From: a virus | Taxonomy: Duplodnaviria; Caudoviricetes | Length of the DNA: 64,000 nucleotides | IMG/VR virus record: IMGVR_UViG_3300045282_000294 | Span: 457-64,456 of that record | Direction: 5' to 3' (one strand) | Shown here: piece by piece, positions 27,498 through 30,094 of the stretch | Numbering within the stretch: the first letter of the stretch is position 1 | Layout: the number at the start of each line of letters is the position of its first letter | Notes under the pieces: generated by a model | What the model was told of the DNA's origin: nothing | The model's input: only the letters and a program-made list of their open reading frames with translations | Database searches by the model: none | Program-made: the position numbers and the translations under genes

Positions 27498-30094
27498 TTA
27501 TCCTGCGATGACCTGGGCTTGCGCCAAAGCCGTCCCGTCAAGGATTTGATATCCGTATACTTGAAGTCCACGTAGGATTTGCCCGAACGTAAGTTCAGAT
27601 CTCAGCGTCTCGATTTTGCTGATCTGGCTTGCAAACGTTAGGGCATGTGCGTGTCCCGCATAGATCGGGGCCTCGCCCGCCGCGAAGTTGGTCGCGTCGG
27701 TTGTGACGCTCGGCAACAGGTTCGAGATATAGATTGTGAACCGGTCAACCATTCCGAGCCTTCCATTGCGCAGCATCGACACCGGATCACCCGACAGATA
27801 CGCCTGCCGCAGCTCGGACTGCTTGATCATGCGTCCGGCCCAGGCCGGCATCACAACCCAACGCCCGACTTCCGGGATGTTGTACTCGTCCAGGCACTGG
27901 CCAAGCCGCAGCAGGATGTCGATGATCTCGACCTGACCCGCCACCGGCGTAGCCGCCTGCCGGCCGACGATCGTCACCGGCGTGCCCTTGATGCCAAGGT
28001 TCAAGTTGGCGGAAATCACTCCGGCCGTTGCACCCTTGTTGCCAGCGGCAGCGCCGCCAACAATGCCGCCGAGCACGTCACGGTCGACGGTAACCTTCAA
28101 CTGCTGTGCGGCGTCCCTTAATCTTCGCAACGAGGCGCGACCCTCGTTACCGCCTTTCGGGCTGCTGCATATTCCTATGCAGAGGAGACTATATCATCAC
28201 CCCTTTCGGGGGCCGGGCGCTTCGGGCCGCTTGGCCCTACGAGCTTTCGCTCTAGTCGTTGCACCTTCCGCTTTCGCGGCTTGGCTCAGGATTGGCCGGT
28301 CTGGCGTTCCCCTGAATTAACCCGGTTTTCGATGCTGATTACTCAGCAAAGGGACTCTGATTAATCCGACCACATCGACAGCAGATTGAGATCAGACTGA
28401 ACCTCCATGACGTCGTCGAGGATCAGGCTGAAGTACTTGCCCGATCCTATGTAGAGCTCAACCGAACCACCGGTCGGGCGATCGAGACCGAGCAAACCAT
28501 CGGCCTTGTAGTCGCGGATCGTGCAAACGAGCAGCGCTCGTTCCGATCATCACTTCAGCGGGCGGGCCGCTGCCGGGTCGGTTGATCTGTGCGGGTGCGC
28601 TCTTGCGCTTCCCTCTGGTTCCTTGCAGTCCCAGTTTTCATAGACCCGGTTTAACGACGACCTCAGTTAATCGTCGGCTTGGTCCGGATTTTCACCCGGT
28701 CCCCCATATTGGCGATTTCGCCTTCATAATCAGTCGCTTAGAGGCACAGCCTCTGCCCACTGTCGCTTACGCTCTCTGCTGCCAGGCCCCATGAATGACG
28801 GCACGTCACGCACCGTCTTCAGAAGCTCAGCAACGTGAGCGCCCGGACCACTCAGTCTGTGCGCCTGGGACCGGAGCTGTTCCAACCCCGCCTTGATACG
28901 CTCACCATCGCGGAAATGACCCATCTTCGCACAACCAAGCAAGAAATAGATCTGATCCGTTTTCAGAACCATATGCTTGGCTAGGCCAGTCTTGCCGCTC
29001 TCGAACATGGACCGGACTTTTGCCGCATCCAGCCAGAGCGTCCACGTGACGATTGGCGTACCGTGAGGAGTTAGGTGCTCGCGAATGGAGCCTCCATAGG
29101 CCTTTTTGAGCAGGTCAACTCCGACCCGCTCGATGGCTTCATCACAAACCATAAGGCTGAGATGCCCACCTAGCCCATTGGGGATATTGACGTTGAAGGT
29201 CCCATTCCCTTCGATGTAACCAGCAGCCCACTTTCGTGTTGGGTGCTTCGGCATTGGCGAGGCGCCGCGAGCGGCATCAAACCTCTGCTTCCCTTCCTCG
29301 ACGTCCATGAACTTGCCGTTCATATCGATGGCACAGTCAGCAAGTGCTCGCTTGAGGACTAAGAACTTGCGCAGCCGCATCAGTACGCTCACGGCCTTAG
29401 AACCAGCTACAACCCAGTGATGGGTGCCGCTGTAGGCAATCGTACCAATCGTCCCCCACACATCAGCGAGTGAAGGAGGCGTCAGGCTGCTGGCGATGAG
29501 ACGCATGAAGCTATGGTCTGGGGTTTTCTGAGAGAACGAAACCACAGCTTGCGCGCGACGCGGCCCGGTCTGATCCTTGTGGTCGTCATACCACTTCAGA
29601 CAGATGCAGCCGTCGCTGTCCAAAAGTCCTGCGAGATACTTGTCGCTGAGCCGTCCCTTGGCTCTGGTTCCTCTCGGTTCCAGTTTTCCAGGTCCAGTAT
29701 TACTCGAACTACCCTTTAATTCGAGATTGCCGAGAGCACTGTGCTCGCGTAGCTCTCCGGCCGGAGCCGGACCGACTATCGCTTCAACGGCATTGCCCGT
29801 TGCCAGGTCACTTAGTCTGTGCGGGTGCATTTCTGGTGCTTCCCTCGGGTTCCCGGAGGTCCCCGTTTTTCAGACCCGGTTTAAAGAAGTCCTATCGAAC
29901 TTCTCGACGAGTTTGGCCGACCAGATTTCCATTTGAAGCAGCGGTTAGCCAAAGCCCGTTCACATCCCCAAAATCTAGTAACGGATAGGGACGAACCCTG
30001 TCGATTGCAGGAGGTTGCCCGTAGAACCGACGGGCGTCAGTGCTGGGGTTGATCCTGACGTTGCGCCAGGAAAACCCGCACTCGGGATAGCCAT
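27498..30094 (-). CDS. major capsid protein (P22-coat-like), 338 aa after splicing; exons 30094-29987, 29929-29898, 29752-29719, 28734-28670, 28523-28364, 28115-27498
   Basis: Joined exons total 1017 nt with no internal stop: MAIPSAG..TGFVP|EIWSAKLVEKF|YASTVLSAISN|TDYEGEIANMGDRVKIRTKPTI|TIRDY..MWSD|DAAQQLK..RGLQVYG; lies directly after the scaffold-like gene. Confidence 0.9.
28116..28363 (-). ncRNA. group I intron 5 of the capsid gene (248 nt, conventional phage IA-like)
   Basis: 5' exon ends in U and the intron ends in G; P1 GGAU/GUCC; core elements AAUUCAGGGGAA, AAUCCUGAGC, CAACGACUA, GAUGAUAUAGUCU; several GAAA-capped hairpins. Confidence 0.9.
28524..28669 (-). ncRNA. minimal group I intron 4 (146 nt)
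   Basis: P1 CGACGAU/GUCGUCG; P3 CCGGGUC/GACCCGG; P4 CUGG/CCAG; P7 CAGAUCA/UGAUCG; P8; P9; terminal G. Confidence 0.85.
28730..29830 (-). CDS. double-motif LAGLIDADG homing endonuclease / possible maturase
   Basis: YLAGLLDSDGCI and WAAGYIEGNGTF motifs; true start uncertain. Confidence 0.85.
   Translation of the reverse strand: MHPHRLSDLATGNAVEAIVGPAPAGELREHSALGNLELKGSSSNTGPGKLEPRGTRAKGRLSDKYLAGLLDSDGCICLKWYDDHKDQTGPRRAQAVVSFSQKTPDHSFMRLIASSLTPPSLADVWGTIGTIAYSGTHHWVVAGSKAVSVLMRLRKFLVLKRALADCAIDMNGKFMDVEEGKQRFDAARGASPMPKHPTRKWAAGYIEGNGTFNVNIPNGLGGHLSLMVCDEAIERVGVDLLKKAYGGSIREHLTPHGTPIVTWTLWLDAAKVRSMFESGKTGLAKHMVLKTDQIYFLLGCAKMGHFRDGERIKAGLEQLRSQAHRLSGPGAHVAELLKTVRDVPSFMGPGSRERKRQWAEAVPLSD
28735..29718 (-). 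mobile_element. group I intron 3 (984 nt) with a homing endonuclease ORF inserted in P6
   Basis: P1 CUCGAAU/GUUCGAG; P3 CUGGACC/GGUCCGG; P6 GCC-AA-GGGA..UCCC-A-GGC; P7 CAGACUG/CAGUGG; terminal G. Confidence 0.85.
29753..29897 (-). ncRNA. minimal group I intron 2 (145 nt)
   Basis: P1 AGAAGUU/GACUUCU; P3 CCGGGUC/GACCUGG; P4 CGGG/CCCG; P7 CAGACUA/UAGUCG; P8; P9; terminal G. Confidence 0.85.
29930..29986 (-). ncRNA. 57-nt core-less group I-like mini-intron 1
   Basis: U at the 5' exon end and terminal G; P1 GUCCCU/GGGGAU; P10 CUAGAUUUU pairs with exon 2 GAAAUCUGG; three in-frame stops; no room for P3-P8. Confidence 0.7.

Follow-up and report, generated by a model that had tools for sequence, protein, structure and literature searches.

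The closest described counterparts of the element analysed here are phage introns of the T4 td/I-TevI type, in which an intron within a phage gene has a U before the 5′ splice junction, a terminal G, an early in-frame stop codon, and an open reading frame (ORF) for an endonuclease in a peripheral loop; delayed or limited translation of I-TevI reportedly protects splicing. In the mycobacteriophage LittleE, a capsid-gene intron that most likely belongs to group I carries a LAGLIDADG-type ORF and is spliced efficiently (PMC3706429). Translation into a group I intron hinders splicing, and in-frame stop codons near the 5′ end have been seen as a protection; ORFs overlapping the intron core sequence are already known (PMC3984707). 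In what has been called “core creep”, such ORFs expand over the core toward or beyond the 5′ splice site and borrow translation signals (PMC8393795, PMC3984707). Here, we describe a group-I-like intron of 984 nucleotides (nt), intron 3, in the capsid gene (MCP) of a soil virus of the Caudoviricetes (Duplodnaviria), IMG/VR record IMGVR_UViG_3300045282_000294. The window, i.e., the whole stretch of 64,000 nt that was analysed (positions 457 to 64,456 of the record), covers nearly all of the source record, a complete virus genome of 64,456 bp with terminal repeats, whose closest named relatives are Rhizobium phages of the RHph_TM27A group.

Intron 3 (28735..29718; all features are on the minus strand unless stated otherwise) shares with the td type each of the features listed above. 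It differs from both the td and the LittleE introns in that its ORF covers the entire ribozyme core and has no start codon within its own intron, in that the core is much smaller, and in that the guanosine-binding pair of helix P7 is G-G. Its ORF resembles those attributed to core creep in its expansion over the core and its apparent use of borrowed translation signals. However, core-creep ORFs continue the frame of the host exon and depend on splicing of the upstream introns, whereas the ORF of the window is out of frame, appears to begin in another intron and would need that intron to remain unspliced. A literature search of listings and passages from a few papers returned no matching case of an ORF starting in a neighbouring intron. 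The most unusual feature is the conserved G-G pair; the complete overlap with the core is also unusual, as is an ORF that links two introns across an exon read out of frame. We consider it probable that intron 3 is a mobile compact group I intron in which the G-G pair is tolerated or compensated and whose functional ORF is started from the intron upstream.

The capsid gene lies downstream of an ORF at 31224..30148 and is single-copy, the four matches to the capsid protein in a genome search all falling in one locus; a second capsid gene, which would make the split copy a pseudogene, is ruled out by the same result. To build the exon map, the uninterrupted capsid protein of RHph_TM27A was placed on the window by tblastn and the junctions were then located; joining of the six exons yields an open capsid gene of 1017 nt, encoding 338 amino acids. 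The five inserts are true intervening sequences, because residues 30-75 of the capsid gene are uninterrupted in 72 of 96 related loci and because the contig of one relative joins 28523 straight to 28670, which amounts to the precise absence of intron 4 (146 nt). Given that this is the sole capsid gene of a complete genome, intron 3 would have to be spliced.

Intron 3 sits between codons 58 and 59, at the same site as in its relatives, and is flanked by exon 3 (29719..29752, 34 nt) and exon 4 (28670..28734), the latter placed by capsid alignment. Its P1 is formed by the exon sequence CUCGAAU (29725..29719) and the guide GUUCGAG (29709..29703), with a U-G wobble at the 5′ splice site; splicing after this U restores the capsid frame, and an in-frame UAA stop stands directly behind the junction. 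At the other end, the intron reads ...AAGCG before ACUGAU, and all relatives likewise end in G. Both its 5′ and 3′ parts match the family of its sisters, introns 2 and 4, in nhmmer and BLAST comparisons. The core is complete, with P3-P9, the conserved joining segments and an enlarged P8; P3 is shared with the sisters with compensated changes (CUGGACC/GGUCCGG), and the endonuclease body sits in the P6a loop.

The 5′ strand of P7 in intron 3 reads CAGACUG (28853..28859) and the 3′ strand CAGUGG (28757..28762). In the Tetrahymena ribozyme, as seen by cryo-electron microscopy, guanosine binds to G264 of the G264-C311 pair and is flanked by three other base triples (PMC10020454). The P7 of intron 3 has the same layout base for base (C-G, bulged A, guanosine pair, A-U, C-G), with A28858 as the bulged A (A263 in Tetrahymena) and G28857 as the counterpart of G264. 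Unlike in Tetrahymena, the counterpart of C311 is a G, such that G28857 faces G28758 in place of the canonical G-C pair of group I introns, while the C-G pair, the bulged A, the A-U pair and the second C-G pair around it are intact. This agrees with an earlier note on this DNA, which had read the 3′ strand as CAGUGG and predicted CAGUCG from the sister introns, 10 of 10 of which indeed have G-C next to the bulged A.

Comparison with relatives, for which L-numbers denote related loci read as DNA and P-numbers the 25 clusters of homologous proteins, indicates that the mismatch is old. CAGUGGG recurs in every further copy of the lineage that was read as DNA (L082, L085-88 and L089-91, plus duplicate contigs). 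A census of P7 patterns that permitted only C or G at the 3′ position of the guanosine pair distinguished 22 classes of strand pair and spacing, 20 of them canonical and 2 G-G, the latter covering 11 loci (the window, L082, L085-88, L089-91 and L101-102); when the whole viral collection was scanned by pattern for further G-G introns, the 12 contigs returned all belonged to these lineages. Since G28758 is the middle base of a Trp codon (within KRQW), the state of P7 can also be read from protein databases: Trp is found in 10 of the 25 clusters (down to 53% identity), Ser, corresponding to CAGUCA with the canonical C, in 9, and 4 are canonical in another frame; in the protein tree, the Ser clade arises from within a Trp grade. 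The retention of G in all DNA relatives of the lineage, and of Trp through deep diversification, argues that the G-G mismatch is inherited and conserved, and is neither an error nor the sign of a dying element. From the same persistence in a sole capsid gene, we infer that intron 3 still splices in vivo.

The coding function of P7 has left a separate trace. At the distal pair of the helix the sisters read UAG, and every lineage in which the ORF runs through the 3′ strand of P7 has U changed to C, compensated by A to G on the opposite strand; this change from A-U to G-C removes UAG from the ORF. The C-to-G change at 28758, on the other hand, was not required for an open frame, because UCG encodes Ser; it would therefore reflect selection for Trp, tolerance of the mismatch, or compensation.

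Our interpretation assumes self-splicing with G-G, and this assumption weighs against it, because the guanosine pair is described as the one strictly conserved part of P7: G264:C311 is the exception to the otherwise changeable sequence of this helix, and G264A serves as a dead control in the Tetrahymena ribozyme (PMC2860135). We suggest that G-G is tolerated or that something compensates for it; if it is tolerated, the 3′ G might pair through its Hoogsteen edge, with the Hoogsteen edge of the 5′ G staying free for guanosine. In work by Michel et al. from 1989, a change of this pair from G-C to A-U reportedly switched guanosine specificity. That G28758 is simply a sequencing or assembly error, for which the earlier note had asked that raw reads be checked, can be practically dismissed: all related copies, which come from other samples, have this base, 10 of the 25 protein clusters show it as Trp, and the likely source run agrees with it throughout the region, although this run is not independent and the independent run X2 misses 28758. 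A re-registered P7, with C28859 paired to G28758 and C28861 to G28757, A28860 as the bulged A, and A28858 and G28857 bulged, is permitted by the CA-CA repeat in GCACAG and by the extra G in CAGUGGG, and would yield a flipped C-G pair; we regard it as quite unlikely, considering that no covariation supports it, that CAGGCUG in the 5′ strand of L089-91 fits the standard register with a G-U pair, and that, with a flipped pair, guanosine would have to be recognised from the opposite strand. We know of no precedent for guanosine recognition by a flipped P7 pair. The earlier note also suggested that intron 3 may depend on its neighbours for catalysis; intron 3 would then borrow catalysis, or a guanosine site, from intron 2 or 4. 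These introns lie only 34 and 65 nt away and have a canonical P7, and core-less mini-inserts (see below), which always stand beside a full intron, make core sharing in the capsid gene conceivable. Yet the G-G intron of L089-91 is the only interruption of its capsid gene (tblastn pieces 1-58 and 59-338), and intron 3 keeps its own complete core, P3-P9, so that borrowing appears very improbable and the proposal was dropped for intron 3. Finally, G-G could cripple the ribozyme, with the LAGLIDADG protein rescuing it as a maturase that was kept despite an Asp-to-Asn change; this corresponds to the feedback loop that the earlier note had envisaged in case the protein is a maturase. The otherwise conserved guanosine pair (10 of 10 sisters; PMC2860135, PMC10020454) and the strong selection on the protein would fit such a role, and LAGLIDADG maturases exist, including one bacterial case, in the 23S intron of Thermotoga neapolitana (PMC3984707). 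However, the G-G and Asn traits are unlinked across the clusters, and a protein made only from unspliced RNA, by translation that unfolds the core, would be an awkward maturase; we consider this explanation unlikely. Tolerance or compensation of G-G by a ribozyme that remains competent is the interpretation we retain.

The ORF (28730..29830, 366 amino acids, ATG start) matches Pfam LAGLIDADG_1 (PF00961; E = 3.5e-5, 25.0 bits against a cut-off of 23.1), with the match confined to the first motif. The earlier account of its path holds in full: a frame scan finds the ATG at 29830, inside intron 2, to be the only canonical in-frame start before motif 1, and the exon map shows that the frame runs from the P6a ATG of intron 2 through exon 3, out of the capsid frame, covers the whole of intron 3 and stops at a TGA formed by bases 3-5 of exon 4 (28732..28730). 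Within intron 3 it passes in order through the guide strand of P1, P3, P4, P5, P6, the body in the P6a loop, the 3′ strand of P6, P7, the 3′ strand of P3, P8, the 3′ strand of P7, and P9. Motif 1 is YLAGLLDSDG (29609..29638), with the metal-binding Asp73 present, and motif 2 is AAGYIEGNG (29201..29227), where Asn209 (AAT, 29206..29204) occupies the metal-binding position, confirming the Asn that had been noted in YIEGNG; the acidic residue that ends each motif is thus present in motif 1 and absent in motif 2. The AlphaFold model (predicted local distance difference test, pLDDT, 88.5; predicted template modelling score, pTM, 0.86) has a two-domain alpha-beta fold with the two LAGLIDADG helices at the interface; the best Foldseek matches are I-MsoI, I-GpeMI, I-OnuI and I-SmaMI (E ~1e-12), and the family profile matches I-CreI, I-MsoI and I-OnuI-type chains. 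The product is therefore predicted to be a monomeric two-motif LAGLIDADG protein.

Several observations indicate that this gene is functional rather than degenerate. The ratio of nonsynonymous to synonymous substitution rates (dN/dS) of the protein body is 0.10-0.13 against L082, L085, L086 and L089, with dS saturated, and 0.08 between L085 and L086, at a dS of 0.41. Among closer relatives, dS falls to 0.15-0.8 where the ORF overlaps the ribozyme core, as expected if the same bases must also fold. The patchy presence of the intron among closely related capsid genes would be in keeping with homing into intron-less alleles. In single-chain LAGLIDADG enzymes both metal-binding positions are D or E (PMC6294521). 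In the present family, the motif-2 position is Asn in 17 of the 25 clusters, P0022 among them, and Asp in 8 clusters and two outgroups, the two states being scattered over the tree, and a linkage of Asn with G-G is rejected by the distribution of the characters: P0012, P0014 and P0015 combine G-G (Trp) with Asp, and P0018, P0024-26, P0008/9/11 and P0013 combine Asn with the canonical C. The suggestion that the nuclease is degenerate, made earlier from this Asn, is thus contradicted by the selection on the body and by the majority status of the residue. Degenerating copies do exist in the family: the P0023 homologue, with scrambled stretches and a shortened tail, looks decayed, unlike the copy of the window. 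More distant endonuclease relatives (L093-L099 and L100; 32-35% identity) reside in introns at capsid codon 134/135 and have Asp in motif 2; their Cys-rich tail (C..C...CxxC) is encoded in an enlarged P8 and ends before a canonical P7 3′ strand.

What a protein with a single acidic residue would do can be framed by known systems. I-AniI and the yeast bI3 protein are LAGLIDADG maturases, and, like these and the protein of the Thermotoga neapolitana 23S intron, the product of the window ORF is an intron-encoded two-motif protein kept with a weakened nuclease site; as a point of difference, Asn and G-G are unlinked in its family. In LAGLIDADG enzymes, three metals are partly shared between the two sites, and loss of one Asp may abolish both cuts. 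In principle, by analogy, a LAGLIDADG enzyme lacking one acidic residue could instead nick, a role that the earlier note had raised as well. Phage intron homing can be driven by nicks, the natural nickases I-HmuI and I-BasI being HNH enzymes, and the LAGLIDADG nickases covered in that source are engineered only (PMC3017599).

The frame of the ORF is open from 29869, and the next TTG after the ATG at 29830 lies inside motif 1. The ATG (29830..29828) stands in the P6a hairpin of intron 2 (29753..29897, 145 nt), 11-12 nt behind a Shine-Dalgarno-like GAGGG (29846..29842) in the 5′ strand of P6, the two together spanning 29828..29846. This is close to the usual design of the family, in which GAGGGAA of J4/6-P6 is followed 7-20 nt later by a start codon in P6a, as in L089 (ATG), L093 (TTG) and L100 (ATG), and, at another insertion site, in L006, L010 and L044; P0022 also starts in P6a, L092 uses a TTG in P6a behind the variant box GAGGUAAG, and P0003, P0008 and P0009 have starts in L5. 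Intron 3 of the window has no such box (it reads GAGCCAAGGGAC) and no start of its own, and intron 2, 34 nt upstream, retains GAGGGAAG and the ATG. All four DNA lineages without an own start (the window, L085, L086/L082 and L104) are stop-free back to the ATG of an upstream small intron, which in L085 is 9 nt away at a different insertion site and in L104 has its ATG in the P1 loop. By contrast, the two DNA lineages with a start of their own (L089, L092) have no upstream small intron. Moreover, at least 8 of the 25 protein clusters begin with M..(H)PHRLSD, the reading of P6a-P7 of a small intron. Translation from the ATG at 29830 in intron 2 is, in our view, the best reading of these sequences, with somewhat better than an even chance of being correct.

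Several points weigh against a start in intron 2. Open frames are common in the GC-rich DNA of the window (guanine plus cytosine content, 61.6%), where a run of 48 or more open codons precedes 42% of frame positions, and the alternative frame of exon 3 is open in 51 of 52 distinct intron-less relatives; hence, only the intron parts of the ORF extension carry information, and after these two controls we largely rejected the openness of the upstream frame as evidence. The start-less lineages are not independent, the window, L085 and L086 forming one grade; the protein N-termini were set by gene callers, programs that require a start codon and are inclined to lengthen the frame; and GAGGG and the ATG are spaced rather widely and both base-paired in folded intron 2. 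In addition, the nearest relative, P0003 (84% identity), has its own start within the intron, so that the loss of the start in the window may be recent and this copy could be newly silent. It is thus possible, although doubtful, that the upstream ATG is a coincidence, that translation begins at a non-canonical codon inside intron 3 or does not occur in a newly start-less, silent copy, and that the open frame is a by-product of GC-rich structured sequence. The P6a ATG would then be a family vestige, as it is present in 8 of 10 small introns, including some without a downstream endonuclease gene (L092, L104b). The only near-standard candidate for a start within intron 3 is the CTG at 29683..29681, in frame and 15 codons before motif 1; this codon, however, is part of a P4 strand, which accounts for its presence, has only a weak GGA ahead of it, and is replaced by CGG in the start-less relatives P0005 and P0024-26, so that it was rejected as a conserved alternative start. 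Silence is at odds with the purifying selection on start-less copies (L085 against L086, above), and coincidence with the openness of 4 of 4 start-less DNA lineages to an upstream-intron ATG, even though no more than one of the three frames is open through the 5′ strand of P7 and the 5′ end of intron 3. The view put forward in the earlier note, that the protein could be made only from unspliced RNA, has accordingly gained comparative support from the start-less lineages, some of them under selection; openness of the frame by itself lends it little weight in this GC-rich DNA, and it continues to be a matter of interpretation.

With the start placed in intron 2, the locus can be pictured as follows. 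Intron 3 would be a mobile compact group-I-type intron with a two-motif LAGLIDADG gene, inserted at codon 58/59 of the sole capsid gene, whose reading frame spread by core creep over every ribozyme helix, such that the same bases would be both folded RNA and coding sequence. In the window phage, intron 3 would have lost its Shine-Dalgarno-like box and P6/P6a start, and the ATG at 29830 would be the leftover start of an endonuclease gene since lost from intron 2. A start in intron 2 implies that the protein could be made only from precursor mRNA in which introns 2 and 3 are both unfolded and unspliced, and, as the box and the ATG of intron 2 are paired in the fold, ribosome loading would compete with folding. 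A translating ribosome would, in turn, unfold both intron cores, so that synthesis of the endonuclease and maturation of the capsid mRNA would be mutually exclusive on any one transcript. An extended version of this picture combines a natural, long-lived ribozyme lineage without the canonical G-C pair, an Asn protein acting as splicing helper and/or nickase, synthesis tied to the ribosome-binding site of the neighbouring intron and possible only from doubly unspliced precursor mRNA, and a 57-nt remnant that may be removed by a neighbouring core; taken as a whole, we hold this combination to be improbable.

The sister introns form a family of compact group-I-type introns. Intron 2, with P1, P3-P9 and a terminal G, has a canonical P7 (CAGACUA/UAGUCG), and intron 4 (28524..28669, 146 nt) has the P7 strands GAUCA/UGAUC, a compensated double change, with the canonical G-C pair; the two are 74% identical over 121 nt and share a layout with a 2-bp P5 capped by a tetraloop and without P2. 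Within the window, Rfam RF00028 recognises only intron 5 (28116..28363, 248 nt), a conventional, ORF-less group I intron inserted at codon 133/134 (82.5 bits, match 28165..28373); introns 2, 3 and 4 gave no RF00028 match at the gathering score or at E up to 10. The fold of the small introns was assessed on an alignment of 10 members (from the window, L082, L085, L086, L092, L104, L120 and L178) with a written structure of P1 and P3-P9 that included the P3/P7 pseudoknot. Paired cells amounted to 84.9%, against 70.7% in shuffles, none of 500 of which reached the observed value; pairing reached 100% in both P3 and P7, where both partners had changed in 6 of 7 and 4 of 6 pairs, respectively. Thus, these small introns are compact group-I-type introns. 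The P6a-loop ATG that these ORF-less introns keep in 8 of 10 cases stands behind a conserved GAGGGAA, and in 5 of the 8 the ATG shares the frame of the endonuclease tail PHRLSGPG, in which P7 is read as (H)PHRLSD. The small introns therefore look like in-frame deletion products of endonuclease-bearing introns. The Azoarcus tRNA-Ile intron, of ~205 nt, is the smallest well-known self-splicing group I intron. A literature search of the same scope as above for small group I introns returned no matching case and no statement of the smallest size on record.

The remaining exons, all placed by alignment with the capsid protein, are exon 1 (29987..30094; residues 1-36; supported by tblastn and junctions, and under purifying selection with a ratio of nonsynonymous to synonymous polymorphism, pN/pS, of ~0.1), exon 2 (29898..29929; EIWSAKLVEKF), exon 5 (28364..28523) and exon 6 (27498..28115). 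Exons 1 and 2 are separated, at codon 36/37, by an insert of only 57 nt (29930..29986) with three in-frame stops. It consists of a P1 hairpin, in which exon GUCCCU pairs with guide GGGGAU and the 5′ junction has a U-G, and of a terminal G; P3-P9 are missing. In L006, L010 and L044 this site is occupied by introns of ~690 nt whose 5′ end is homologous to the first ~31 nt of the insert, which identifies the insert as an apparent deletion remnant of such an intron. Other capsid-gene mini-inserts are found in L085 (2209-2242), L020 (510-540), L220, L224 and L254. There are five distinct variants at codon 36/37 (34, 35, 36, 40 and 57 nt) and one of 31 nt at codon 40/41; none of them has lost P1, the U-G or the terminal G, and most shift the frame. 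The pattern scan for mini-inserts was unspecific, the filter having kept, from the 80 loci listed among 110 matches, 6 distinct stretches, 4 of which were capsid-gene inserts. A restart of capsid translation at an AUG ending the mini-insert was rejected as a general explanation, 2 of the 5 site variants ending in CAG or UCG. In all 7 lineages with mini-inserts, the capsid gene also has a full intron shortly downstream, at a distance of a few tens of nt (~20-80 nt where measured). The mini-inserts may be removed with the help of the neighbouring intron core, which would apply to a different insert the neighbour dependence that the earlier note had suggested for intron 3. Putative group I introns of 56-81 nt have been described in fungal ribosomal RNA genes, one of them reported to splice in vitro (PMC3160393).

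Across loci L005-L100, capsid codons 36-67 are a hot-spot of intron insertion, with at least 7 distinct sites within 31 codons (36/37, 40/41, 43/44, 46/47, 58/59, 63/64 and 66/67); further capsid insertion sites are at 133/134, ~257 and ~316-325, and the guide sequences are retuned to each site. The phage genome also carries a tRNA gene (3193..3264, plus strand; RF00005, 67.5 bits).

In the active site of group I introns, the guanosine G-C pair is regarded as the one sequence feature that does not vary. A natural lineage that has diversified with G-G in an essential and very highly expressed gene offers a ready test of how much of the pocket is required, or of its replacement by a protein or another interaction. 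The presence of Asn in 17 of 25 clusters at a dN/dS of ~0.1 suggests that some LAGLIDADG proteins function with a single acidic residue or have a role other than making double-strand cuts. The 145-nt sister introns, together with the core-less mini-inserts, may show how small an insert can become and still undergo group I splicing. Dual coding and core creep would both be carried to an extreme by an ORF that extends over a whole ribozyme and takes its start from a different intron. Such an arrangement suggests that a simple kinetic switch sets endonuclease (selfish) against capsid (host) output from one transcript and, if the upstream start is true, a built-in trade-off between production of the endonuclease and maturation of the capsid mRNA.

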